A stretch of 64,000 nucleotides of DNA from Owenia fusiformis (Eukaryota), in assembly GCA_903813345.2 (NCBI GenBank), contig CAIIXF020000001.1:8866001-8930000 (forward strand), written 5' to 3'. Shown here piece by piece: positions 15,101 to 62,224 of this stretch. Under the pieces are notes generated by a model. It did no database searches. It was not told the DNA's origin and saw nothing but the letters and a program-made list of their open reading frames with translations. Position 1 is the first letter of the stretch; each line of letters starts with the position of its first letter. Made by a program: the position numbers and the translations under genes.

Positions 15101-18100
15101 TAAAAGGTTTATCTTAGTTTTTTTATTTCGGGGGTTTTTGTTTTAATTTTTTGAATACTTTTTGTTCAATCAACCAAAATTTCCTTTGTACAACTATAAT
15201 ACATGTATTGGGAAGTCTAAAAAAATGTTGTTAATGCTATTTTGTTCAAACAAGCTTCGGAAAGATATTTTATTTCATTCTCAAGAAATGGTAAAAAGGA
15301 ACAAAAACAAAAAAACAATTGCACTAAATTTCAAAAAATGTTAACAAAAACAGTTATATCGCATTAAATTGTTGTCAATTAGTCAACATTACATAAAGGA
15401 TCCTTTATATGAAATTATTTGTGATTAAAATAATTGTCGAAACCTCTGGCGAAATCCATTTTTGTTTGTTTTTGAATTCGGCAGGAATAAAAGTACCCGG
15501 ATGTTGGGAAAGTAGTCCCAGCACTTTACCAATCAGAGAGTTACTGGGTGCGGACTTTTCAAACGTTATATTGGCCCTCTGTCTAGTGTACAGTTTACAC
15601 TATACATCATCATAGGTATGTTATAATACTTTATATGTAATATCTCTTATGTGTTTTTTTTAATATTTGCCAATTTATTCAAGGGTAGAATAAATGATTA
15701 ATATTACATGTGACATATACAGATTCATGAATATAGTGTTCATTTGGGATTTTCTACTCTGTGGAGTTGTGGTCTGTTTGACATGTATAAACTCTATGTA
15801 TAAAGTCCCCCATACTCCCCTTCAGTTATCCCTATAATTATTATGTAATATTAAATGCTTTGAATCTTGAATAAAAACACATACCACTTGAAACAGGGAG
15901 AGATATGCATTGAAAACATGGTCAAAGTTGACCTTTGAGTTCACCCAGGTATAGTTGAGCTCTTTGTTGGTTGCATTGTCACATTCTGTTCTGTTTGCAA
16001 CAATATCAGTCGTGAGTTTGTTGCCCTCTGCATCCACGCACTTGTAGAATTGGCCTAAAGAAAAGCACAATATAAATCACTCAAGAGTAATAATACATGT
16101 AATCACAAATATTATGCTATCTTTAAAATAATTAAAACAATATTTTGAATAGATATACAAATTATGACTAGTATTTTAACATTTCTGAATGCATGGTGAA
16201 GTGAAACATAATCAGAGTTATCAACCCCCATGCAGTGTAGCAGCACTTTCCTTTAAAAAGATAACATACTAAAGGATGTAGTGAAGTATCAACATATCAC
16301 ATACAGAATAAATAAAGTTTAGAGTTCTACAGAAACTAGATCTTAGCAAATAGCACTATATTGTGTTTACTTTAGCATAATTTATTTAATATGATAAAAC
16401 ATATGGTTACCATTATGATGTCATTTTATCTAGATGAAATATATATTCTTGAACTAAGATAGAAATTATGATTTCATGCGGTGATATGAGTTAATACGTT
16501 GAAGGCAATTAAGTTCATATCTTCTAGTCTACTGCTTAATACTATTTTTCTTATAAAGCCAAAACAAGATTTAGTCCTCATAAGTCATAGGTCTTCATTA
16601 TTATAATGAACTACAGCTACTATACTGTGCATTACAACTACACTAAACTATACAGTATATTTAAAGCCATACTAATATACTATCATGAATTCTATGTGTG
16701 TGTTTTGAACTGATAACTAAGATCTTTGGAAACAAATAAACACTCTGTAATATCTATTTTCATTGAGTGGAGAAAAGTTGTTAATTTGTTCTACATAATT
16801 CATGGAATTATAGAAAAATGTGTGTCCATAATAATTCAGGTTTAATAAATACTCTTCTAACTTTTATTCATTTTTCCATATAGATAGTATTATTAAATTA
16901 TTTATACTTTGCTATTCGTTTATGTCAATTCTAATCATTAGAATTATACCTCCAAACAGTTGACAGCCCATTATGGCTCCTATTAGCCACATTACTAGGA
17001 TGACAAAGCCCACATTGCAAATGGCTGGGATTGCACGGAATAAGGCATTAACAATAATCTGCAAGCAAAGCATGCCAGGCAAAACATAAAAAGCAAACCT
17101 TTAAACTTGAACAAGCACATATGGGTCCATGAAATAAATCCAAATAGAGAACCTGGGTAGATCTCTGTGGAATTCATGATGGCTCTGTCATTTGTTCAAA
17201 AACAAACATATACACTGGACAGTAGACACTGTATTTAACAACCAATCCCTCTGTTTTAGTGTAAAACCTAAAGACATTACTAAGACAACAAGGCACACAA
17301 ATTATGATTTTAAGCTGCAAATTATAACACATTGTATACCTAAAATAACCAAAGCTAAAATATTAAATATTAATATAAAATGAGGATTAATATATAAATG
17401 AGGATTATGACAAAGTACTATATAATTACATGTAAGTATAAACATTTTTTTGAATACCCCTAGTCCGTGTATGAGAATATGAATCTTCAATTTAGTTTAT
17501 TAAAAATTTCTCAGAGAGTGTTAATGGGTCCATCAATGTTTTCAGATTAGTCAAAAAGGATTGTAAGCTAAATACTATACTCATCGAACCAGGCTGTGTA
17601 TTGAATTATAATTGTACAAGAAATGCATTATGTAACAGAGGATGTTTCACCATGAATTGTTTCACATTTGTTTGAAGATTCATATTTTTCCTGTGTTTTG
17701 TGCAGACTATAGGTGACTAGAATAACATACTAGCAGTTGTGCCTTGTTTAAACTGCATCTGTAGATTCTAACAAACAAAAACATGTCTACACACATCAAG
17801 TAAATTGTAATACCCTTCAGTAGCATAACACCAATTATCGCCATAACTAACCAAAACATCAGAATAATGCCACCAACATTAGCGATAGCAGGTACAGCTT
17901 TCACAAGCGAAGTCACTACTCTCTAAAATTGCATCATTTAAAAATAATATTCAACAAAATGCAACAACATGCTTTTGTTAATGTATAGCCTTTTGCCAAT
18001 CTTGCAATATATCTATCCATATCCATTGGATTTCATGTTGGTCATGGTTGTTTCACTCAGTAATATCTTAATGAAATAGCTGCCCTTGCCAGTACAATTT

Positions 18101-21100
18101 TTCCAATGACCACTCTCGGTTGACTACTCAAATTCTATGACTCTGTAGTTAGAATACTTTTGTATTTGACCAAGGGAAAAATCAATACCCGGTGATTCCA
18201 GCGGGAACTGGCGTTTCGTTCAGTGGATGACCTGCGCGCGCACACATTGATGTGATTATCCAATATTATTTTGGGATGGATATTCAAGCTTATTTTCGTC
18301 ACAGGCGTGACCCGGGGCTGTCAACTTAAGGACATTTCGTTGAAAATGAGCCATTCGGCTGATAATTGGTAAGAGTTTGTGATCTTATAATGTATAACTG
18401 TCACTCAGATACATATTTTGACACTCTTCTGTTGGAAACAAGCTTTGAACCGAGCGAGAGATATTCACGATTGATATGCACATTTTTGATTGTGCCATTG
18501 CTTTTCCATTGCACAATCCATGTATTGATAGAAGAAACAATAATGAAGATTTTTTACTTTCAATACATGGCGGATTCACTACCTATCGGTCTATTAAATA
18601 CTATTTTGTGCCCTAAATAGTTTTATATTTCCATCCACGGCCTGGAGCCTGGGTGTGTTTGTCTCTTATGTGTATGCTTGTGGATTGGTGGGGCTGGTAA
18701 GGCCACCCCTGGCCCCGTCCATCCTTTATTATCCCATCGAACGAAGTTCGGAGGGATATAGGGAACGCCTCCGTCCGTCCGGGCAATAACTCAAATACCG
18801 TTGGCCCGATTTTATTCATATTTTGTACACATATACTCTATGGGGATAGAAGTTCTTTTTGGCCTTTACTCGTTATTTTACGATTTTTGCTGTAACTCGA
18901 AAAGTAGTGGAGCGATTTTGTTCATATTTGGTATGTGAATACTATAGGCATGGCGCACTGTCTAATGACACTTTTGGTAGAAGGCGGACATTTAGAAAAA
19001 TGGCGGACATTTTGAAAAATGGCGGACATTTTGAAAAATGGCCGCCATTTTAACTTATTTTACTATAACTTGAAAAGTAGTGGAGCGATTTTGTTCATAT
19101 TTGGTATGTGAATACTGTAAGCATGGCACACTGTCTAATGACACTTTTGGTAGAAGGCGGCCATTTTTCAAAATGGCCGCCATTTTAACGTTTTTTACTA
19201 TAACTCGAAAAGTAGTGGAGCGATTTTGTTCATATTTGGTATGTGAATATTATAAGCATGGCACACTGTCTAATGACACTTTTGGTAGAAGGTGCCCGTT
19301 TCGAAAAATGTTCGATGGGATTCGCTATGCTTTGGCGTTGCCGTTGTTCTGGTTCTACTTCCCACTTACTCAAGTCTCTAGCCAATTACCGGAATTTCCA
19401 GAGGGCTTGGAAGAAGATAACTTTCCCACCCTCAAACCTCAACCTCCATCAAAATCAGGTTATAACATTATATGATATACAGCAAGAAGTCTGGTAGAAA
19501 TATAAAATATTTAAACATCAAAGCTGAAAGTTAAGAAGTTTCTGTCTGCAAAAGAACGTTTACAATTGACACAATAAAAGACTGGGGCTTTGAAACCCAG
19601 GAAAATATGACGTCATACTAATTAACATAAGGAATTCCCCATCGGCTTGGGTCGAACATCATGCGAAAACACAAACCGATAAATAGTGCTAATATCTCAA
19701 GAGATAGGAAGTGTATAACAGATTTATCGATTTTATTTGAAGATTTAATCAATTATCAAGTTAATTAAATGGATAAAGTGGTCACACTTGCTTCAATTCA
19801 TAGCGTAATCAACGGAAAGAAACTGCACCCAAATTCCATATCCCACCCCTTATTACTACAGCCTAATAAGCGCAGTGGCCTGCAGAGGGTACGATCACAA
19901 ACATGTACTGCATGAACCCATTAAATCCCGGGTATTGTAACGCCCTTGATTTGACTAACCAATTTCTTTCTTTAAGATGTAGAAACATGACCAACATGAC
20001 ATTTATGAGAATAACATTTTTCTATATTGGGGGCTGCTGTTTAACACTCTGCCTTACACCTGTACTAACATTCAACACCAGGTTGACAATATACAACCAC
20101 ACTATGATGCTTACATGTCAGAAAGTTGCCTTTTATAGCTCTGAAATAAAATATTGAAAAATATAATCGAAATATAAAAAAGGTTTAAAATATGGATCAA
20201 AAAACATGTAATCTTCGCACCACAAAACAATGCTGTATACGAAAGCCATAACCATGCTATGTGTAAATAGTAACGCCACTTATCCAATAATGTAATGTTG
20301 GGACAACACACCATGCAGACAGGGGGTTGTGTAGCATATATACCCACCTTGGAAGAGGTTCACACCCATTATAGCTATGATGAGCCAGAACACTAAGATG
20401 ACTAACATTACATTACTGATAGCCGGGATGGCCCCAATCAAAGCATTCACTACTACCTACAGAAAAACAAACCAAAACATCTACAAAATGTGACATATGA
20501 CATCATCTCCTCCAAGCTGTGAATGTGTTAATTATTGTGATCTTTGAGGAAACTATTGGAGATTATTTTTTCTTGATTTAGTGTCATAAATGATTTTCAT
20601 GGATAAATTGATTTTATACAATTTGATTCTAATGTTAGTGAACTATTTAATAGCTGAAAATATCAAAGTGATGATTAATTCATGTGATGCTGATCTGTGG
20701 TCATGCCTCGATCCCATGTGACTAGGTGACAGGTGTCAAATGTGGCCTATAGATGTCCTACCAGCAAACAGCTGAACCCCCATGATGGACAAGATAAGCC
20801 AAAACATAGTTATCACTGCAACTACATTCAATATAGGGGGCGTACTTCTAACTAGTCCTAACACAACCACCTGTAACAGGGTACATACATCATACACATA
20901 GCTAGCTACAGTCAGTCCTAAAATAAAGAGATTGGGGGGGGGGGTATCCATGTCCATGGAAGAGTTGGATCTACCTAGAGGACGTAGGGCTCAACCTGAA
21001 ATAATAATTATTACAATGTGATGCATTAGACTATGTCTATGTTGGTGATGTAACTTTTGAGGCATTAATGTAAAATGAATGGTAAATGATTTAAGGTAAG

Positions 21101-24100
21101 ATTAAATCCATATTTGAAAGGCAACATACCTTCATTCCCTCCCATCTTGATACTGCCCTAAGAGGCCTTAATGCACGTAAGGTTCTAAGTGCCTTGAATG
21201 CACCTATCTTTCCTGCTCCTATCATCTCTGCTACTAAGCCAACTATGGATATCTGAAAAACATTGATTTGCATTAACAGAAATATACTCCTCAAAAATAT
21301 TTAAGGACCAGTCTTTTTCCTCATGTCTGTTTGACCTCTTATTTTCAAAGCCTGAAACAAAAGAAAAACTGATAATGTAAATGGATATGTACCTTGACTC
21401 TATTCTCTGTATTTCAGAAAATTTGGGTTGGGTTGCCAAAAGTCATATAAGAAAATATCAATCAATTTCAATTGCTCTCAAAAATGGAATGTAAATAGAC
21501 AATTGAATTTGCTAACTGTCTACAACAAAAATTGATTTGTTTCTCCAGGTTTTACAAAGTTATGAGTCTCAAAAGTCAATATCATTTCTCATAAAACCTC
21601 TCATTGAAATAACACAGGGTGTCAAAATGAGTTGTCAAAAATATGTTGATGCTCTATATCGGTAATTCTCACAAAGTAAGCTTAACAAAAAGCATGCTCA
21701 AAGTAAAACAATTCAATTGTCTACTCAGAAATTAGTTTTGATAAATGTTTTTACCGAATACATATCCAAAAATCTGATTTGCCCCTAACCCACCATTTCC
21801 CATTGGTTAACATGGGTTCTGCAATTTTTTTGAAATTCCTCAACTTTGACATCAATTGTTGACCGGACCTATTGTAATAGAGAGATTAAATTGAAAAATC
21901 CCTGAAATATAGAGAATAGGGTCAAGGTACATATCCATTTACATTATCAGTTTTTCTTTGGTTTCAGGCTTAGAAAATAAAGTTTAAAGATACATAAGGT
22001 TTAACATGTAAACCTTAACTTTTTTTAAGGAGTATATTGTTGCGTTTCTTTAAAGTTTTTAGTCATCCTTCCCTTTTGGCATTTGTGCTTATATATTCAT
22101 TGATATTGTACTACTTGATTTTTTTAGTTCGCTAAAATGTTCTTTTTTCTTTGTTAATTTTTTACCCTCTGTGTTTCTGAATGTAATGTTGAAGTATTTC
22201 AAATCAAATGTTTTCAATATATATATTTAGTACATACTGCTACAATAACAAAGTCCAACCAGCACCAGGCATCAGTGAAGTACTTCTTGTAGCCATAAGC
22301 GACCCACTTGAGTAACATCTCAAGAATGAATATGATAGTGAAAATTTTGTCCATTATATAAAGAGTGGTTTGTAGCCAGGGCCTATTAACTAGATGTATA
22401 TCTTCAATTGCCTGGAATAAAGATATTTATTATGCAATTAATGCATACTGTACATTTAATAACATTTAATGCTATAACATAAAATATAGAGCAAGGATGT
22501 CCATTTGAAAATTAATATTGCTTGCAAGAGTAAAATTCTTTTAGATTTTGAAGGGGTTATCTTATATGAACAAGTGGTTATGTGCATGCACTATTGAGTC
22601 AAATCTTTTCTAGGTGTTGTAATATGTTGAATTCTTTATGCTTTGAATCCAAATTTATACAGGTTTTACACAAACACATCAAGAATACTCACCAAAGCTA
22701 GACTGGATAGTAAAATCATAACAATGATAAATGTTTCAAAGTAATTGTTTTCAACCAGCCAGTAAGAGAACACACGTGCCTTCCAGTATTTCTGACCGAT
22801 TGGAGTTGATGTGCATGTTTGACAAAATATAAATTTGTCATAACAACCAGGACACCAGCAATCAAATGGGTCTTTGTCCTCTTCTATCTCTGTTTCTTCC
22901 TTGTTAGTGCCATCAGCCTCATCATCTGTCTTAAGTTTAGTATCCTCATTAACCGACAGATCATTAGAAGTATTATCTCCATCATGTTTAGAATCAGAAC
23001 CATCTTCAATTTCAATTTTTGTTGACTTCTCAGATACTCTATCTATATCATTTTGCATAGCCTCATTGTTTTCATCATCTATTGCTATTGCATGTTTGTT
23101 TTGCATAATGATTCCATTTACATCATTCAAGCTTTTCTGTGAAGAGCTTTTGTCTCTGCTCTGTGGAAGCAGTGTTTTTGTGTCTTCATTTCCATCTGTT
23201 TCAATTTCACTAGATTTTAAAGACTTTGTCGGACTTTTATGTCCATTTGTTCCATTCTCAATACACTCATTATCACTAGCACCATCTGGGTCACCCCTCT
23301 CTAATCCATTCATCTCAATAGTTTCACTTCTCAATGCCTTCACATTGTTTGGTTCTCTTTTCAATATTAACACACATATACTATACATAATACCATATTT
23401 TATTTTTGAGCCAACCCATTTAAACCTGTCGATGGCTTCAGCTATTTTATTTGGTTCATCATCATCATCATCTTGTTTTTGCAAACTGTCTGCTCCGAAT
23501 GAGCTCAGTAACAAAGCCAGAAACAGATTCAGCACCTAAAATAAAATGATAAGGTTGTTCTAAAGCTCCAATTACAAAAAGGCCAATGTTTCACATAGGA
23601 ATTTTGAAATATCCCAAGATTCAGTTTTAACATGGTCTGTGATTAAGAAAATGTTGATGTGTTCTTTTATATTACTACTTTTTATCTAGTTTGTGTAGTA
23701 ATGTGAATGTAACTCTTTTATAGAGGCAAATGAATTATACGTACATCCTACATAAACATTCAAATAGTTTGTCTATCAATTAACTTATTTTATTATTTGT
23801 TTGGTACTCATCTTATAATTAGATGCAATGTCTTACCACTAGATTTCCTAATATGACTGTCAGCATAAAGAATGGCACACACATTGCACCAGCTACGATC
23901 ATGCAATCCCACATTGATTCTATCCATTCCCCACACAAAACACGGAACACAATCATAAATGAGTGGAAGAAGTCATGCATATGCCAACGGGGCTTTTGAT
24001 CTAAGCCTAGGCGATGGTAGTTCAGTTCGTAATATTGTCCAAACAACTGCATTCCCATGACAGCAAATATGAAGATAAGAATTCCAACAACAAAGGTCAA

Positions 24101-27100: not shown

Positions 27101-30100
27101 TGTAAATCTGTGCAATTGGTTAATTGCAAAACTAGGAAATATAAAAATTGAAAAAGGTCAGAACTATATTGTCTATTATTCATGAACCTTTTTGCGTTGG
27201 CAACATGCATAGCAAAGTGGCTAATGAAATCATTTTTAATTTTCATTATCAAATTGATAGTATAAATAGTTGACCTGCAATCTCTTTTTAGATTTTAGTA
27301 TCTGTAGGTACCATAATGTATTAGTTTAGTAGTAAAGTAATCTAAAAGGGTCCTCTAAAGTGTAACAACTCTTAAGTGATTCTATGGGGTATGATGCTAA
27401 CACGTCTACCACACATGTGCAATAAAAGGTAGATTAATCTGTAGTTATATTTGTAGTATATGATTTAGGGCATAAGTTCTGGTGATTGTTGGTTTTGGTA
27501 TTAGCTTGCCTGTAGAATGTGACAAGGTATCATGCATGAATATGTCTACTGAATGTTTCACTCTACAAATTTCACCTCTCTTTCACGTTTTTTTCTGTCA
27601 TGACGCAACTGAATGTCAAAGAGCTAAAGAAGAAATGTTAAAATAAAAATAATATTGAACAAAAATGGATGATTTACTTCACCAACATTTTATAGTTAAT
27701 GAGTATGGTGGCAAATTGTGCAATTTCAGCTGAAAAAATATAATCTAAATTTTGTATGTTATGGATGCTGTAAAACCAAATACAAAAAATGAAAAAAAAA
27801 AAATGGCTCAATAATCAATGTTGCATCCTCGGTCACGTTGAACAATCACCCTTGAACAAGATTTCGAGTTAAGGAATAGAAGAGCCCTCCACCTGTTTCT
27901 GATCTACATAAGATCTTTAAGGTAAGTAGGAGTATAAAGCAGCTGTAAGCTAATATAGCAGATGTCACTATGGTATAACCTATCAGCTAGGTGCAGCTGT
28001 TTATATTCAGCTCTCTGGCCAGTATGTGGCCCCACCTATATGCCCCTTACCCTCTCTTTCTTTTCCACTTGGTCCTACATTGAACGCATCTGTTATCACC
28101 TTTATATACAGCTTAACTAATTTTATGTCTAATCCTGGACTAATAATTTATTTTAAAACAATCGAATTACATTAGATTTGAAAGATTTGCTTTTGAAAAG
28201 GTTGACTGTTAACTTTTACAATGTATATTTTGCAATATCTTTATATTTTAGGTTTTGTTTTTATTACTTGTTAGATGTCTTGTACACAGTGATGGCCCAT
28301 ACCTTTCTTTCTGCCTCTGCCTCCTCAATGTCAGCCTGTGTCTGTTTTTGCTGCTCATCATACGCCATGGCAACTATAGCCAGAATCAAGTTCAACAGGT
28401 AGTAGGAGCCAAGGAATAGCACCATGATGAAGAATAACATGTGCCAGGGACCCATTGATCTTATCACCTTAGATAATGATTGTATGATTTATTGAGAATA
28501 TTAAAGATGTAGTTAATTCAATCATGCTAGTCAAATCTACTGTTGAGGAAAATTATAAAAGCATATTTATTTAATAGTTTACCATCAGAGTGAATTGATT
28601 ATTGTACCATTTGATATACCTCTTTGTATAAATGTCCATTCTAGATGAGTGAAAAGAAGTTTGAAATAGTTACCAATTGATAAAGATTCTCCCAGAAGTC
28701 CTGTGTCATGAGGCGGAAAGAGGATAGGATTGCCCAGCCAAAGTTATCAAAACTTGTGAAACCATAATTAGGATTTTCACCAATATTGGAGACGCATGTG
28801 TAGTTTTCTGGGCAGAGACTGAAAAAAGGTATAGTGCATAGATGTACATATGCATTATATTGTGAATCCATTGTTTGCCATTGTTGATATTTTGGATTGG
28901 TTTCACTATCACAGCAGCAGGCCTGTCAACTTGGGAACACCTAACATGAGTGACTTGGAAATGTTGAACACCTCCCCTCAAAATGTGGACACCTTGGTCC
29001 AAATCTGAACACCTTGATCCAAATTTTGAACACCTTGGTTTCAATTTTATTACATCTTGCCAAATTTTGAACACCTCGCTACGCTCGCGTTTCAAACATC
29101 CATCAACGGGGGGGGGGGGGGGGGGGGGTTGGTACAATACGTTCGTATTTTTGCTGTGTAGACGATCTTTTTTAGAAAATTTTCTACAGAAATCTTTTTG
29201 CTTGACAATTACCAGGTAAAATGCGTATTTGCGTGACATTTTCTGTCACGCAAAAATAACTGGCGTGACTTCAAATTCTTCAGCAAATGCGTGACAAATA
29301 CGCAAATTGCGGGACAGTTGACAGGCCTGCAGCAGGCTAATTTTACAGTATATATAGGGAAACAACTCGCTAACTGGTCTGTTTATAATTCAATGACCCA
29401 GTCCTTGAATGATGCACCCTGTAGCCCTAACTTTTTTGTGTTTCTTTTCTTTGTGTTTCTTTTATAATTTTTCTTCGATGTTTATATTGCTAATAACTAA
29501 AGGCTCTAAATATCTGAGATAAGCGTCCTTGACTTACATGTTAGATTTGATATATCATAAAATTGTGTATGGTGACTGGTAGCTCAAATATGAAATTGTT
29601 CATGCTGCCACTTACTTTGATCCTGTGCTGTTGCCACAAAGGTAATATTTACCATTTGCAGTACCTGGAAGCCAGTTTGCTAAAAGGAAAAATACTTAAA
29701 ATTACAATTATGGTAAATTCCACCCTTCTATTTGTCTTCCTGGCCAGCAATATTTATGCAGTCTTGTTAATATGTTAAAAGAGGTGGTCGCATTTTCTTA
29801 ATGATATTCAATATTCTGTTATTTAGTAAGTGATAATAACCATGCATTCATTGATGGTTTTTGCAACTTTAATAAGGATCATGTTGCCTTCATGACTTTG
29901 ACTTCATCATACACTTTTTTAAAGATAAGATCTTTTATTTTAAAGTACTACGATTCATTCATGAAATGCAGCTATAATCTTGTTTTCAATGTTATTTATA
30001 TAATTCATTAAGTGCAGAAAAGGGACTGAATGTCATTGCTTAGATATAACTTATTTGTAAACTGCAACTTAAGTTTTTTATACATATTAGTAGTTTGTGA

Positions 30101-54011: not shown

Positions 54012-54989
54012 CTATTTAATTCTAGACAAACACATTTCGATCAACTAAACATGCTACTATTCAAGAAAGTACAAATGGCATCTTTTTGACTTGTATTTAT
54101 TACAGTCCGAGATCCAGAAGATCTTTCCTGACGAAAAGCCCACATTATGAAACACCTTGTACGTTTACCTATAAGTATAAATATACGTTATAACACTGTG
54201 TTATAAGTTGTACTTTCACTAGGTGCGAAATCTCTCTAATATAACATAACATATATCTTTTTGTCGATAAACTGGAAGTAATGTTTTTGAGTCGAGAGAT
54301 GAGTGATAATGCTTAGTTACAATGTTTTCACCCAGAGACTAAATGACTTCATATTTATTCATGATACCATATTGATAACATGCCGCTGTATTGTGTCATT
54401 GCGAATTCTCTTGAAGATCTATACACCTTCAGAAGAAAATAAACTTAAGAATGTGTTAACATCAATGATACATCTTGAGTTATCAATTTCATTCAAACAC
54501 GAGAATACATAGTTGTCGATTTTGGAGGTCGACACTTTTCAGATTGATTTATATAAATGTAACAAATATTTGTTCAAACAGTTCTTCACCATATACTAAA
54601 AATAAATCCGAAAAGTTAATCTTTAAACCTTGAAACACTGATTTAAGATTTTTATTATCTATTAAGTAGCTTCTAGAGCTCTGTACCTGAATTAATCAGT
54701 TATTCCACAATTTGACATGGATTAAAAAAATATGCGAATGACGCTATATTGTATCTGTACTATAAAGCAAAAAGAAGTCAGTTTTCAAAACTGATATTCA
54801 GCAAAGCACGATACATGTAGATGTCGATATATACAACTTGTATATGTCTAAGTGCCACGTAGTTTGTCGGACTATCAATATTAGCGAAATATAGAGGTAC
54901 AGTTCCAAAGAGGAAAAAATATTAGGCGAGGTATCGTACTTCCGTTACATTGAACTTCCAATTTGAATTTGCAAGATCCTGATATAACC

Positions 54990-57900
54990 ATGGCTTCAGA
55001 TCAAAAGGGACTTGAACGAGATATAAAAGATGTGTTAAAAAGATGCGATGGAAGTGAATTGAAAAGATTCCTTCATAATTCATCAACCCAACCAAAGTGT
55101 CCAAAGGACATCATAGTATGGGCATTTAGGAACAATGTCAGGTTGACCAGAAAAATCATTCAAATCTTAGTGGAATATGGAACAGATGTCAACGCCAAAT
55201 ACGAAAGGTCTGATATGTTCTCACCAGATGATGGAAAGACTTCATTGATGTATGCTGTAGAGAAGAAGAATGTGGAATGTTGTCGCGCTTTAATAGATCA
55301 TGGTGCTGACGTTAATGCCAGTGACGAGGATGGGAAGACTTCATTGATGTATGCTGTAGAGAAGGAGAATGTGGAATGTTGTCGTGCATTGATAGATCAT
55401 GGTGCTGACGTTAATGCCAGTGACGAGGATGGGAAGACTTCATTGATGTTTGCTGTAGAGAAGGAGAATGTGGAATGTTGTCGCGCTCTGATAGATCATG
55501 ATGCGGACGTTAATGCCAGTTACAGATATGGGAAGACTGCATTGGTGCATGCTGGAGAGAAGGAGAATGTGGAATGTTGTCGCGCTCTGATAGATCATGG
55601 TGCTGACGTTAATGCCAGTGACATGTATGAGAAGACTGCATTGATGTATGCTGTAGAGAAGGAGAATGTGGAATGTTGTCGGGCTCTGATAGATCATGGC
55701 GCTGACGTTAATGCCTGTGACAGATATGGGAAGACTGCATTGATGTATGCTGTGGAGAAGGAGAATGTGGAATGTTGTCGCGCTCTGATAGATCATGGTG
55801 CTGGCGTTAATGCCAGTGATATGTATGAGAAGACTGCATTAATGTATGCTGTAGAGAAGGAGAATGTGGAATGTTGTCGGGCTCTGATAGATCATGGTGC
55901 TGACGTTAATGCCAGTGACAGATATGGGAAAACTGCATTGATGTATGCTGTTGAGAGAGAGAATGTGGAATGTTGTCGCGCTCTGATGGATCATGGTGCT
56001 GACGTTAATGCCAGTGACATGTATAAGAATACTGCATTGATATATGCTGTAGAGAAGGAGAATGTGGAATGTTGCCGCACTCTGGTGGATCATGGTGCTG
56101 ACGTTAATGTCAGTGACATTTATGGGAAGACTGCATTGATGCATGCTGTACAGAAGGAGAATGTGGAATGTTGTCGGGTTCTGATAGATCATGGTGCAGA
56201 CGTTAATGCCAATTACATGTATGGGATGACTGCATTGCTGCATGCTGTAGAGAAGGAGAATGTGGAGTGTTGTCGGGCTCTGATAGATCATGGTGCGGAC
56301 GTTAATGCCAGTTACATGTATGGGGAGACTGCATTGATGCATGCTGTAGCGAACGAGAATGTGGAATGTTGTCGGGCTCTGATAGATCATGGTGCTGACG
56401 TTAATGCCAGTGACAGATATGGGAAAACTGCATTGATGCATGCTGTAGAGAACGAGAATGTGGAATGTTGTCAAGCTCTTATAGATCATGGTGCGAAGGT
56501 TAATACCAGTGACAAGGATGGGATGACTGCATTGATATATGCTGTAGAGAATGAGAATGTGGAGTGTTGTCGGGCTCTGCTGAGTCATGATGCGGACGTT
56601 AATGCCAGTTACAGATATGGGAAGACTGCATTGATGTATGCTGTAGAGAAGGAGAATGTGGAATGTTGTCGCGCTCTGATGGATCATGGTACTGACGTTA
56701 ATGCCAGTGACATGTATGAGGAGACTGCATTGATGTATGCTGTAGAGAAGGAGAATGTGGAATGTTGTCGCGCCCTGATAGATCATGGTGCTAGCGTGAA
56801 TTCCAGTGATATGTATACGAAGACTGCATTGATGTTAGCTGTAGAGAAGGAGAATGTGGAATGTTGTCGTACTCTGATGGATCATGGTGATGACGTTAAT
56901 GCCAGTGACAAATATGGGAATACTGCATTGGTGCATGCTGTAGAGAAGGAGAATGTGGAATGTTGTCGCGCTCTGATGGATCATGGTGCGGACGTTAATG
57001 CCAGTGACATATATGGGAATACTGCATTGGTGCATGCTGTAGAGAAGGAGAATGTGGAATGTTGTCGCGCTCTGATGGATCATGGTGCGGACATTAATGC
57101 CAGTTACAGCTATGGAAAGACTGCATTGATGTATGCTGTAGAGAAGGAGAATGTGGCATGTTGTCGTGCTCTGATAGATCATGGTTCGGACGTTAATGTC
57201 AGTGACGAGAATAGGAAGACTGCATTGATGTATGCTGTAGAGAAGGAGAATGTGGAATGTTGTCGCGTTCTGATGGATCATGGTGCGAACGTTAATGACA
57301 GTGACATGTATGGGATGACTGCATTGATGCAAGCTGTAGAGAAGGAGAATGTGGAGTGTTGTCGTGCTCTGATAGATCATGGTGCGGACGTCAATGCCAG
57401 TGACAAGAATGGAAAGACTTCATTGATGTATGCCATAGAAAATGACTGTGTGGAATGTTGGCGGTTTTTGATAGATCATAATGCTGATCAAGGTGGTAAT
57501 CTACTGCTTTATCCAATAGCAAACACAACTGGAAATTACATAGAACTTTACTACAGCCTAACCATATTAGCTGGCATGGTTGACAAAAGTTACAAAACTC
57601 TGTTTCAGATAAATCAAAATGCAAATATAGATCAACAATACGCAGCTAGAAAGCAATTGGATAATTTCTATAAGAATTCAAAACTCTCTCTACGTCGAAG
57701 AGCAAGGCATTCTGTCAAACTTATTCGAAATAAATACGGTTACAAAAATATTATCGACGATTTAGTTGACAGTGGGTACCTACCATCAAAGATGAAACCC
57801 TTTATGCTATTTGAGGAAGACATCAAGGAGATAAAGACCATTCTTACAGAGCTACATAACTGTCATATCAAGGAATCCGAAGCCATTACTGCTTCAGGTA

Positions 57901-60900
57901 TGTTGCTCCATATATTATTATGTGCTTTATTATACTTGTACCCCACATTTGGGCAAAGTGTACAGCTTAAACAGAAAAAATGAAAAAGCTTAACTAATTA
58001 TCTATATATTATATTAACTAATCAAAGGGTGCTTGATCATTGCAAGATTTTATTGGATGTATTTCGTGTTTTTTTTTCTCTCGATAAAAATATTAAATAG
58101 AAACATTAATTTATGTTTCACGTTATTCATGTTTTCTAAATTTTGACAGTGTTTTTTTTTATTTTATCCATGTAACTTGACCGAACATCTTTAACTTATT
58201 GCATTCTAATAGGAAATGGCATTCTGAACCGGTTTTCTTGTTACACATTAAACATTTTCTTTCTTCAATAGGGGTAATTGGTTTTGTGTAACGACCTGTT
58301 TCGATTTCTAATTTATGTGCGCTAATTCTTAGCTTTGTCAAGTTATTTCTGTCTATTTCATTTTTGATTAAATCCGAGTAGGGTTCCTTGTTCCATTTTG
58401 CTTTTATTATCTTATAAAACCTCAATTTACCATTATTTGATTTTATTTCAAATTGTATGTATCTATTTTCCAGTAATTTCTTAATTTCTCTTGGTTTTAA
58501 GTTTAAATAGTTTGGTGAAGTACCATTGTAAATATATTTAAGTACATCATTGATGTGCGAGAGCCATGATTGTTTATTCATATCTGTCAGATGTTTATTT
58601 ACCTTCATAAGAACATTTTATTTACCTTTATAAGAACATTTCGTCAAAAAGGAAATCACATAAGCACACCGGAATAGCCTGACAACGGTAAAGTCAGATA
58701 CCGTTGTCACAAATGGCGGACATAACTGTCGCTTTAACTCTCCAATCACTTGGTCCTCGTTTCATGGGACTTTATTGTCGCTAATTCTGTGCATGTATTA
58801 AGCTCTTGTGATATGAAATCCCAACTTCGATCAAATTGTGGAGTGAATCGCCACAATATAGCGTCTTCGATATCGTCAATGACAACGGAATCTGAATTTA
58901 CCATATGCTGTTGTCTTGTAAAATTTCTCAAATTTAGATTGCGATATACCAAATTTCCTGAAAAATCAAAACCTTTATTTTACTGATATTCATTGATCTT
59001 TCATGTAATATCACTTTCGGAAAATCGCTTTAAATTAATATCTGATAGTGAAAGATGACACTGGATAATCTGCATTATTCACTCGTACATTCAGAGCTAT
59101 ATTTTCTGTGGCACACAATAAGCTTACGTAAATTGGTTTATGCAATGATAAACTCCTTAGTGCTAATATATAGGCTAACCAAATGCCTGCAGGGGGAGGG
59201 GTCAAACAAACTAGAGTAAAATTCTGACATACAAAAAATGATTTATGGAACATCTCTTAAATTGTTGACCTACTTCTTTCAAAACAATACTTTTTTGATA
59301 CTACCACATTAATATGTATTAAAGATGTAATATAAAGTTTGTAAAATCCTGACATATTCTACTTTAAACCATTCATTTTACCAATGATGATCGTTAGATA
59401 TTTGGATGAACGCCATAATTTCAAACATATTGGGACCTTTCAGTTTTGAGTTAACAGCAATATATTGTTTTCATATTTAGAACGTGAGACACGAGAAATG
59501 CAAGAGAAAAGTATCAAAAATAGTGAACCAAAACAAAGAAGTGAGCATCATACAAAAATGGAGGCTTTTGAAATTCAAACAAATGATACTCCGAGCGAGG
59601 AACGTACAAGAGCAAACAAGAAGCTGACAAATGAGGGTATTGGATCTGCAACCAAAAGAGATGAATGTCAAGCAGATGAGGACGGGAAATTAACAAAACT
59701 GAGAAAAACAGAAACTGATGGCCACATGATTTCTCAAACCACCGACAAATCTACAAAAGATCTACGAAAAGAGATGGTTGATTTGCCAGTTGATTCCTCT
59801 CCTCGTCAAGGAAATCCTACGGATAAGAAACCTTATGACGAACTACTTCCGTGTGCAGAAAAATTACTGAGGAAGTATGTTTAATATGCTTTTTCCTCCA
59901 ATAATTTTAGCATTTGTAATTTTCAGAACTATTTCAAACTCCATCAAGTAGGATAATAAAATCAAACATTCTTAGAATAACAAAAATTTTAATACCGCAT
60001 GTTGCTATTAACATACGGGTGAAACATATGGATACAAATCGACCTCATTCTTTATGTAAATAATGAAAATAACAGTTTCCTCCGATGAAAGTTCATCGAT
60101 TTTGCTATAAAGACACAACGTCAAGGGTTTAGATAATATATGATTGAAACTTTTACGAATCAAAATAAAAATTGGGAAGTATATATAATTATCCAGAGAA
60201 GGGTGGAAATAATTATTCCACCCTTATGTTATTGTGATTAATTTATAGATAAAATGAATTTTTATAGGATTCCAGTGGTGAAGGGCTATGGAATGCGGGA
60301 AGATGGCTACTTCACAATTCACATCGTTGATGGTTATGTGAAGAAAACATCACGCTACATCAAAAAGCATATACCTGGGTACAAATTCAATTTTGTGCCA
60401 TGGATGAAAGGGGAGCGTATTCACTTGCTCGGATGTACTGGGGCATCACTCAAAAGTAGGGTGATAGATAGAGCGGAGTTCGATTCGATTGGAACTCTCG
60501 GTGGACTTGTTGCAACTAATACAGTAAATGGTGTCGAACATGTGTATGCTGCAACAGCCAATCACGTTGTAGACATTAATATTCTTGAAGAGGATCAAAA
60601 CCAAAATACCAAAACCGAACAAAACAAAATAGAATTCATGACTTGGTCGAAAGATGATGAGTCTGATATACGTTCAATAGGTACTGAAGTTCCATACAAT
60701 ATACCACTAAAGTTGGAGGAGCGTGAAAGTGAGGACGAATGGGTTATTTTCAAAGACAGTACTGACGATGACAACGACGCCGTATCTGAAGACAGTCTTG
60801 AAGATGGCTTTACCGACGATAGTGATACTACTGATGATGAAAATGCGAAAGATTGTGTATCAGCACAATATGATATTGCACTTGTATTAATAGATGAAAA

Positions 60901-62224
60901 GCACAAAGACTTGGTAGATCAATGCAAACCATGTCATGAATGTTGTTCGACCATCTCATCGACCAACAAAGATATTCTTACAAAAGGAAAAGTTGTAAAA
61001 CTGGGATTTTCAAAAAGTCTGAACAAAGGGAAAATAAAGTGTTTAAAATATGCAGGAGAAATCGAAATCAATAACAAAACAGCATGGTGCTCTAATTTAG
61101 TTATTATCGGTTCTGTGCTGTCGAGCGAATACTTCAGTGAAGAAGGAGATAGTGGCACAATAGTAGAGATTCAGTATGATTCCACCATTGGAGATCACAG
61201 CCCGGATTGCTTCATGATTTTTGCGGGATGGGAAAAGGAATGCAGTTGGAATACCTGGAAATGTCCCGTGTCTGTAGCTTTTAATCTCAAGCCTGCTCTG
61301 GAGAAATTGAGTGAACAATTAAATAACGACGGTGAGACTGAAAAGATGTTTAGATTGTCATGTTGTAAACATGTCACATCAGCCTCTATTTCAATACAAG
61401 CAGATAACGAGCCTGGCGAGGTGGTAAACAAAAGCAACTCATCATCTCAGTCGTCAATAAATGAAATAGAAACGGATCTGGACTGCGCATCGGGAACAAT
61501 TTGCAAAAATAATGAAGCCTCACTTCATACAAAAGCTGAGCAGTGTACTGACAAGCGTCGACAGAAACTGTCACCAAGCATGATTCATGTGTCTCGAGAT
61601 GATGTGACGGAGATTAATTTCTGTGGCGATCGCTCAGCCGACACAACTAAAGGCGGTATGTACGAGTAGCCATAACTAATGCCTTGGTCACATTTGCTCC
61701 TATCCATCGGCCGGCGCCCGGCCGATTGAGTGTTTTGCTCAATATTGTATTCTATTTTGAACAAAATACTCAATCGGCCGGGCGCCGTCGTGAAAATCGG
61801 AGCAAATGTGACCAAGGCATTAGTGTATTCTATTCTAAGAAGGCTATGTTTAAACATAAGCTATTTACAGGTAATTTTAATTGATACTTCATTTCTGCTG
61901 GTTTTGCCCCCAACCTTTTTATCCTTGTTGATTTAAAATCTAACCTTGCTAATTTGTCATCAGTGTAACCATGCATAAACAAACGCAAATAATATTTAAC
62001 TACCTTAGTTAATAACTCCAATCTCTTAACCCTATATATTTATCCATTCACACTTAGGGGTGGAAAAAGCAGACATCAATGCTGAAGATGTTCTGGCTGG
62101 AAATGAAACATCAACTGAGGAACTTCCTGTACCAACGAAAGAATGTGATAGTTTGACGATCCTGGCTGGCATTTTTATATTTATATCGGTTTTCCTCATC
62201 TTGCCTTGTTGGTTTTGCTTGTAG
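54990..62224 (+). CDS. Ankyrin repeat / SOCS-box-like / trypsin-fold serine protease / C-terminal transmembrane protein; exons 54990-57897, 59481-59874, 60268-61655, 62058-62224 (1618 aa)
   Basis: accATGG start; three GT-AG introns with matching phases (1, 2, 1) join three ORF-track ORFs and a short terminal exon into one 4857-nt frame. 23 ankyrin units; SLRRRAR...LPSKMKPFML; GTLGGLV, ATANHVV, YDIALV, GDSGT; ends LTILAGIFIFISVFLILPCWFCL*. Confidence 0.82.
55229..57490 (+). repeat. Coding tandem array of 23 x 99-bp ankyrin repeats
   Basis: 33-aa unit GKTALMYAVEKENVECCRALIDHGADVNASDxY with high nucleotide identity between units, all within one exon. Confidence 0.97.
58159..58608 (-). mobile_element. 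LINE ORF2 C-terminal fragment in intron 1 of the ankyrin-protease gene
   Basis: KLRFYKIIK...LTKLRISAHKLEIETGRY...ERKCLMC...SECHFLLEC. Confidence 0.85.
58665..58905. mobile_element. Partial copy of the MITE at 6797-7302
   Basis: cacaccggaatagcctgacaacggtaaagtcagataccgttgtcacaaatggcggacataac... aligns with 6797-7040. Confidence 0.8.
61676..61824. mobile_element. ~150-bp palindromic MITE (Harbinger-like)
   Basis: actaatgccttggtcacatttgctcc...ggagcaaatgtgaccaaggcattagt, with an inner cgcccggccgattgagt / actcaatcggccgggcg stem. Confidence 0.75.

Follow-up and report, generated by a model that had tools for sequence, protein, structure and literature searches.

In the insect sodium channel gene para, exons k/l and exons c/d form mutually exclusive pairs, with c/d located in the second domain (DII) of the channel. 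The k/l pair and exons G1, G2 and G3 of paraCSMA belong to the site between segments S3 and S4 of domain III (IIIS3-S4), and the sodium channel of the booklouse Liposcelis bostrychophila has four alternative exons, 27A-D, at that same site, as given in PMC3805903. For vertebrate voltage-gated sodium (Nav) channels, mutually exclusive pairs at DI S3-S4 and DIII S3-S4 are described in a review (PMC13011093), which lists Rbfox and Nova as their regulators. For the oyster Nav1, size screening of cDNA fragments is reported to have found variants in cytoplasmic linkers only (PMC5295241). For clusters of exactly two exons, a 2026 preprint (PMC12772994) summarizes a proposal that exclusivity is enforced by the reading frame and nonsense-mediated decay (NMD): the exon length is not a multiple of three, and double inclusion or skipping leads to a premature stop. 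Here we analyze a stretch of 64,000 nucleotides (nt) from the annelid Owenia fusiformis (assembly GCA_903813345.2, contig CAIIXF020000001.1, positions 8,866,001 to 8,930,000; hereafter, the window), in which the Nav1 gene contains an array of four homologous exons for the DIII S4-S5 linker and S5. We conclude that the array is a case of a known way of diversifying Nav channels, located at a new and mechanistically interesting site and made up of unusually divergent copies.

The array follows the DIII S4 exon of the gene and precedes the DIII pore exon. The four variable exons, labeled A, B, C and D in the order of the transcript, lie on the minus strand at window positions 20870-20762 (A), 20456-20348 (B), 17922-17814 (C) and 17058-16950 (D). 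Each is 109 nt long and has its own splice sites: exon A (GTG...CTG) is flanked by ttacag and gtagga, exon B (GTA...AAG) by ctgtag and gtgggt, exon C (AGA...AGG) by ttttag and gtatta, and exon D (ATT...GAG) by ttgcag and gtataa. Frame 0 is open in every copy, and both other frames contain stops. The introns between the copies are 305 nt (A-B), 2425 nt (B-C) and 755 nt (C-D) long, with GT-AG boundaries at every splice site. The four exons are homologous, lie next to each other, are alike in length and phase and have individual splice sites, which is the pattern by which a tandem exon duplication is recognized. Upstream of the array, a constitutive exon of 123 nt (21252-21130, minus strand, phase 0-0) contains the last part of DIII S3, S4 and the first part of the S4-S5 linker, ending in ...AVSRWEGMK; its donor at 21130 faces a choice of four acceptors. 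Downstream, a constitutive exon of 170 nt (16054-15885, minus strand) encodes the DIII S5-pore turret (...LSLFQV) and is entered in phase 1: its first two bases and the terminal G of each variable exon make up a Gly codon. The selectivity-filter Lys (ATFKGW) is encoded by the exon that follows. The first-pass annotation of this DNA, made from its letters, had described four stop-free, AG/GT-bounded exons of 109 nt at these coordinates, running from phase 0 to phase 1. The exons were re-read and re-translated, with identical translations, and the phases were borne out, since the S4 exon ends in phase 0 and the variable exons supply one extra base.

A profile built from the four copies was compared with all 2791 six-frame peptides of the window of at least 15 amino acids (aa). 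Exactly A-D were found, with scores of 70.6, 70.8, 71.7 and 78.6 bits, respectively, while the next-best match, DII S5, scored 7.5 bits. The resemblance among the four exons is far above chance. No fifth copy was found by this search in the 64-kilobase (kb) window, and since everything other than A-D scored 7.5 bits or less, the array has exactly four members.

To follow the reading frame through the array, all 16 inclusion combinations were computed. Four of them, all single inclusions, stay open, and the remaining 12 of 12 contain a premature stop, which lies inside the second included exon when more than one exon is included and in the pore exon when none is. The first-pass annotation had claimed that inclusion of zero, two or three exons breaks the frame; the result is slightly stronger, because inclusion of all four leads to a stop as well. 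Since only the four single inclusions stay open, the frame rule would be sufficient for exclusivity. The array resembles the NMD-type pairs, as presented in PMC12772994, in that the exon length is not a multiple of three and double inclusion or skipping leads to a stop. The mechanism was proposed there for two-exon clusters, whereas in Owenia it holds for four exons, because every multiple inclusion runs into a stop inside the second included exon.

The four copies are strongly diverged from each other. Pairwise nucleotide identity among A-D is 47-62%, and amino-acid identity is 47-67%. Codon position 2 is 67-89% identical, while position 3 is only 17-33% identical, which is the random level expected at saturation; in the same pairs, the proportion of synonymous differences (pS) is 0.75-0.98 (saturated), versus 0.23-0.39 for nonsynonymous differences (pN). 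There are no indels among the copies and no stop in any of them, and 12 columns, including P11, N15, W24 and G31, are invariant. Neutral drift was simulated in 20,000 runs, starting from exon B and using the intron base composition, and a run was scored as passing when the frame remained open and amino-acid identity was at least 47%. At a drift to a position-3 identity of ca. 0.35, none of the 20,000 runs passed; at a much shallower depth (ca. 0.52 at position 3), 0.035% did. A comparison of the dN/dS (nonsynonymous to synonymous substitution) type among the four exons, a check that had been named beforehand, thus gave a pN well below the saturated pS, which is the signature of purifying selection in all copies. 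Within this one genome, all four copies are kept by purifying selection. Indels are absent, 12 columns are invariant and no neutral run passed at the observed depth, so that none of the copies can have been under free drift for the greater part of the period since duplication. Both B and D, at the least, are maintained, since B is near the animal consensus (27 of 36 residues) though the gene models use D.

Given this evidence of selection, and since only single inclusion stays in frame, the best reading of the array is a four-way mutually exclusive cluster, with one exon per mature mRNA and all four exons in use. We put the probability of this reading at about 0.6; our confidence is higher for mutually exclusive use of at least B plus D. 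Tandem duplication in the Owenia Nav1 gene would then have led to a cluster of alternative exons, one copy of which enters each mature mRNA. One additional base is required to pass from the S4 exon, which ends in phase 0, to the pore exon, and a single 109-nt exon would supply it; other combinations would run into premature stops, be non-productive and presumably be cleared by NMD. Each copy would provide an alternative DIII S4-S5 linker and S5, i.e., the coupling between the DIII voltage sensor and the pore and a part of the pocket for the IFM particle. The gene would give rise to up to four channels, among which activation, late current and the recovery from inactivation are expected to vary. 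Exons A, B and C are presumably spliced into mRNA, the choice among the exons may be regulated, possibly by Rbfox-type GCAUG sites, and the isoforms probably differ in gating.

The identity of the host gene is clear from its translations. Minus-strand stop-to-stop frames from ca. 33.8 kb to 9.2 kb of the window encode a four-domain channel, with Pfam matches to Ion_trans in three exon translations and to Na_trans_assoc in the DII-DIII linker exon. The translations contain the motifs TQDFWE (D), CGEWIE (E), TFKGWI (K) and TSAGWN (A), which we take, following established knowledge, to hold the selectivity-filter positions, and the DIII-DIV linker contains the IFM motif in the form MEIFMTEEQ. Because of the D/E/K/A filter residues and the MEIFMTEEQ sequence, the gene is assigned to the Nav1 type; the earlier assignment to a Nav gene is thereby supported, as it is by the two Pfam domains. 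The public protein P0009 ("unnamed protein product, partial [Owenia fusiformis]", 1788 aa) spans window positions 33798-9165 on the minus strand in ca. 25 exon pieces, with up to 100% identity; exon 21252-21130 is a 100% match to its residues 1100-1140. The 90% cluster of P0009 has one further model, P0308, whose sole difference from P0009 is an 8-aa insert in the DI-DII linker. The insert corresponds to an optional micro-exon of 24 nt at 28051-28074 (minus strand; preceded by tag, GACCAAGTGGAAAAGAAAGAGAGG, followed by gtaagg), which encodes DQVEKKER and is missing from P0009. That the two models differ by a small optional exon suggests transcript-based annotation. Because the models look transcript-based and carry D rather than the more canonical B, a D-containing mRNA was likely seen in the annotation.

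The position of the variable exons in the channel was determined by comparing the profile with all PDB chains. The best matches were to DIII of Nav1.8, 1.5, 1.3, 1.2, 1.1, 1.7 and 1.4; the DIII stretch scored 55-59 bits (residues 1322-1359 in Nav1.5 and 1315-1353 in Nav1.6), and the DI, DII and DIV stretches of those chains scored 3-11.5 bits. The exons had been described as encoding the DIII S4-S5 linker and S5, and the best PDB alignment, at Nav1.5 residues 1322-1359, agrees with this. Since the profile aligns to these residues, exon column 4 corresponds to N1325 of Nav1.5 and column 9 to A1330. Column 4 is Asn in B and D, Leu in A and Thr in C, and column 9 is Ser in exon A. The expectation that A and C would deviate most at the NAL stretch was thus correct for Asn (Leu in A, Thr in C), and C, with 16 of 36 residues identical to the consensus, is the most deviant copy. 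According to Hsu et al. (PMC5339511), activation is shifted by N1325S and A1330P in the DIII linker of Nav1.5, both for the channel and for its DIII voltage sensor, and recovery from inactivation becomes faster; an increased late current of N1325S is cited there from earlier work. The same paper counts three Brugada-syndrome and seven long-QT-3 mutations in the 19-residue DIII linker of Nav1.5.

The closest described system, Liposcelis 27A-D, is like the Owenia array in having four alternative exons in DIII of an invertebrate Nav1 (para-type) channel, of which one is present per sequenced clone in the published account (PMC3805903). In contrast to the Owenia exons, 27A-D encode the IIIS3-S4 voltage sensor rather than the S4-S5 linker and S5; 27C is given there as a part of 27B, obtained by an alternative 3' splice site, and 27B and 27D differ by one residue. 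The use of the Liposcelis exons was demonstrated by cDNA clones, whereas the Owenia copies differ by 33-53% in protein and are known from the genome, with only D in gene models. The vertebrate pairs 5N/5A (or 6N/6A) of SCN genes and 18N/18A of SCN8A are, like the Owenia array, tandem-duplicated Nav exons of equal length; as the sources describe them, the vertebrate pairs are used singly and tune gating. Unlike the Owenia array, the vertebrate and insect Nav sets in these sources are mostly pairs, and none of those described lies at the DIII S4-S5 linker and S5, the part that receives the IFM motif. The site in Owenia differs from the known DI and DIII S3-S4 sites, with S3-S4 and S4 lying in the single upstream exon 21252-21130. 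The claim of the first-pass annotation that known mutually exclusive Nav exons are pairs located elsewhere thus stood as regards the sites and failed as regards the number, as the Liposcelis exons 27A-D and the exons G1, G2 and G3 demonstrate (PMC3805903). Its further remark, that no description of such an array is known, is consistent with the full-text literature searched, exclusive of supplementary isoform tables, in which neither the Owenia channel nor alternative exons at DIII S4-S5/S5 were found to be described.

To compare the segment with that of other animals, 307 proteins were used, 240 of which contain the segment, in 69 unique non-Owenia versions. None of the 240 proteins contains it twice. 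Identity of the other sequences to the 69-sequence consensus has a median of 31 of 36 residues (range 21-35); the values for the Owenia copies are 27 (B), 22 (A), 22 (D) and 16 (C). Exon B, with a best single non-Owenia match of 30/36, is therefore the most canonical copy, and exon C is the most divergent one. Exons A and C each have 8 residues that were unseen at their columns in the 69 unique other sequences. Column 20 is Ile in all four Owenia copies versus Cys in 97% of the 69 others, and column 27 is Leu, Ile, Met and Gly in the four copies versus Phe in 100% of the others. The Ile common to A-D would fit a duplication within the Owenia lineage, or gene conversion. In a tree of 73 segments of 36 aa, only the long terminal branches of the four copies stood out (0.19-0.83, versus a median of 0.03), with no clear signal for or against a clade.

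A second or variant segment was absent from all 46 spiralian and flatworm proteins picked for closer comparison (three Helobdella models, Capitella, Lamellibrachia, Hirudo, Lineus, Macrostomum and many molluscs, including the multi-isoform sets of Crassostrea/Magallana, Octopus and Haliotis); each has one canonical segment, with no isoform variation there. A search with the profile for longer proteins ranked mostly birds and molluscs. In metagenomes, a scan with the Owenia profile gave 28 pattern matches, none of which was confirmed, and a scan with canonical exon open reading frames (ORFs) gave 80 loci, 79 of them with a single copy and one with a weak second match, which is a DI segment. The latter is a modest negative, the median total flank being 2.9 kb and 35 loci having at least 1 kb on both sides. 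An acceptor AG is found at the identical position in 80/80 of these loci (L001-L080), and a donor GT after nt 109 in 21/80. Because the GT is missing in 59 of the 80 loci, the downstream intron is not universal; in many animals the S4-S5/S5 exon appears to be fused to the turret exon, a discrete exon of 109 nt being limited to a part of these loci. With the S4 exon as a query, several arthropod models (Halocaridina, Spodoptera, Timema, Operophtera and Cotesia) and a 202-aa ORF, all within P0190-P0197, outscored the exact Owenia match. It would fit if the outscoring arthropod models carried two tandem IIIS3-S4 exon copies, i.e., both mutually exclusive copies annotated in series.

Several observations weigh against the use of all four exons. 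In both public gene models, D is the only one of the four exons, and no further 100%-identical protein of 73-2000 aa was present among the 215 matches to the S4 exon query. Four of 21 listed sequencing runs were examined; in the two that contain raw RNA reads (X19 and X20, ca. 6% of each), depth was 0 on every Nav exon, including the four variable exons and both constitutive neighbors, with reads only on repeats, and these runs are uninformative on splicing. No relative of A type was seen among the 71 matches of exon A in 1.84 billion representatives; the best short matches were 59-65% identical, and all seven that were examined were of the canonical type. In a search with exon C, no candidate shared three 5-residue words with it, and no C-type relative was found. 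Exon C has the weakest polypyrimidine tract of the four copies. An ungapped helix scan for docking/selector pairing revealed no shared site, the best helices being 10-15 nt long, AU/GU-rich and scattered; such a scan of a single genome is a weak test, as related genomes are required to see covariation. The data from one genome would also fit A or C having gone out of use recently.

In line with these points, the array may be a two- or three-way system with relics, in which D is the working exon, B is a conserved alternative, and A and/or C has recently fallen out of use, with no visible decay yet. Such a history would account for the presence of D alone in public models, for the replacement of the nearly invariant Asn of VVVNAL in A and C and the 8 residues in each that were unseen in the 69 sequences, for the weak acceptor tract of C and for the lack of relatives of A or C in our searches. 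However, the codon pattern of A and C is like that of B and D (67-81% identity at position 2 versus 17-33% at position 3), neither has an indel or a stop, the AG/GT boundaries and the terminal G are intact, and both keep a hydrophobic S5 and the invariant P11, N15, W24 and G31. We consider recent disuse of A or C unlikely. It is much less probable still that only exon D is ever used and that A, B and C are silent duplicates, whose likeness is left over from duplication. While both public models do use D and the protein collection contains no other isoform, synonymous sites are saturated in every pair, yet amino-acid identity is 47-67% and all frames are open, an outcome seen in 0/20,000 neutral simulations at the observed depth. 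Moreover, B is closer than D to the pan-animal consensus (27 versus 22 of 36), which silent drift cannot produce.

That the array results from an assembly or haplotype-collapse artefact, or that its exons belong to separate overlapping genes, is scarcely credible. No support for an artefact was found, and the three 500-N gaps of the window lie elsewhere. Contigs of two runs from two studies (X1 and X2, which are labeled "RNA?" and are in fact DNA, as the contigs continue through introns) are colinear with the window across the four exons. Depth on the exons and their flanks is 13-24 in X1 and 5-13 in X2. Such colinearity in independent DNA runs, at an even depth typical of single copies, rules out an assembly artefact. 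No difference occurs in exon A, B or C in either run; in D, X2 has none and X1 has one, unlisted, at the most; several single-nucleotide polymorphisms and indels are found in the introns around the array in these contigs, too few to measure constraint. The copies are 47-62% identical and are therefore not haplotypes, and all four lie inside one intron interval of one gene model, which argues against separate genes.

Mutually exclusive use of the four exons raises the question of control. Introns as long as those between the copies rule out steric hindrance as the mechanism of exclusivity, and the GT-AG sites throughout rule out U2/U12 spliceosome incompatibility. Invertebrate genes with docking/selector clusters of the Dscam type likewise contain three or more alternative exons, but there one docking site pairs with a selector beside each exon, and the scan found no convincing site of this kind in Owenia. 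Whole-intron duplex folding gave only meaningless full-length duplexes, and Rfam had no match in 15700-21400. On the minus strand, an Rbfox-type hexamer, UGCAUG, is located at 20312-20317, 31 nt downstream of exon B. Further GCAUG elements on this strand begin at 20706 (56 nt downstream of A), 20257 (91 nt downstream of B), 17972 (50 nt upstream of C) and 17075 (17 nt upstream of D). Five GCAUG elements are thus present in the 800 nt flanking the four exons, versus 1.04 expected at the density of the gene (Poisson P ca. 0.004, counted post hoc and uncorrected, and hence a lead rather than a result). The layout, with sites after A and B but before C and D in the direction of transcription, would fit position-dependent control by Rbfox, which the 2026 review (PMC13011093) lists as a regulator of the SCN8A 18A/18N pair.

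A more specific picture is possible, which we offer tentatively and hold to be somewhat less likely than even. A single-copy annelid Nav1 would have diversified its fast-inactivation receptor via a four-exon cassette, with splicing in place of the gene duplication of vertebrates. B would give a conventional fast-inactivating channel, and A and C, which are without the N1325-equivalent Asn (A also without the A1330-equivalent Ala), would give a large late or persistent current or an altered recovery, the choice being made by cell type through Rbfox-type GCAUG sites. The S5/linker interface would have been remodeled in the lineage; such remodeling of the whole interface is suggested because all copies, B included, have replaced the 97% Cys and the 100% Phe.

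Other features of the window include repeats in and beside the array. A high-copy interspersed repeat occupies 18165-19950, inside the 2.4-kb B-C intron and outside the array exons, which accounts for the long B-C spacing. It contains tandem units of 135 nt and 19 nt (GGCGGACATTTTGAAAAAT) and has no match in Rfam. Its DNA word depth reaches ca. 5x10^5, versus ca. 15 in the flanks, and its RNA depth reaches ca. 800, with the first mate mostly on the minus strand; the repeat is transcribed somewhere in the genome. Beside the array, 15700-15890 and 21239-21400 have a DNA word depth of ca. 100-550 versus ca. 15, along with a few RNA reads, and are probably further dispersed repeats. The gaps mentioned above are located at about 34.6-35.1, 37.1-37.6 and 62.6-63.1 kb (1500 N in total). 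On the plus strand, ankyrin repeats (Pfam Ank_2, E 5e-195; 22 Ank stretches) make up nearly all of a single uninterrupted frame of 1009 aa at 54954-57983, in which a unit of 33 aa is strongly repeated and the GC skew is unusually high (0.2-0.3). A 475-aa open frame at 60242-61669, also on the plus strand, adjoins the ankyrin gene and has no Pfam match.

Mutations are dense in the DIII S4-S5 linker of sodium channels, through which a voltage sensor is coupled both to the pore and to the gate for inactivation. If the four exons are indeed used one at a time, Owenia would provide a natural set of four selected alternatives for DIII S4-S5/S5 in an otherwise constant channel, i.e., a ready structure-function series. 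The cluster would also be a four-exon example of the frame rule that the preprint cited above (PMC12772994) describes as proposed for two-exon clusters. In four-domain channels, the known range of mutually exclusive splicing would grow beyond the S3-S4 sensors to include the region of S4-S5/S5 coupling, and electrical diversity in one animal would come from what may be a single Nav1 gene.

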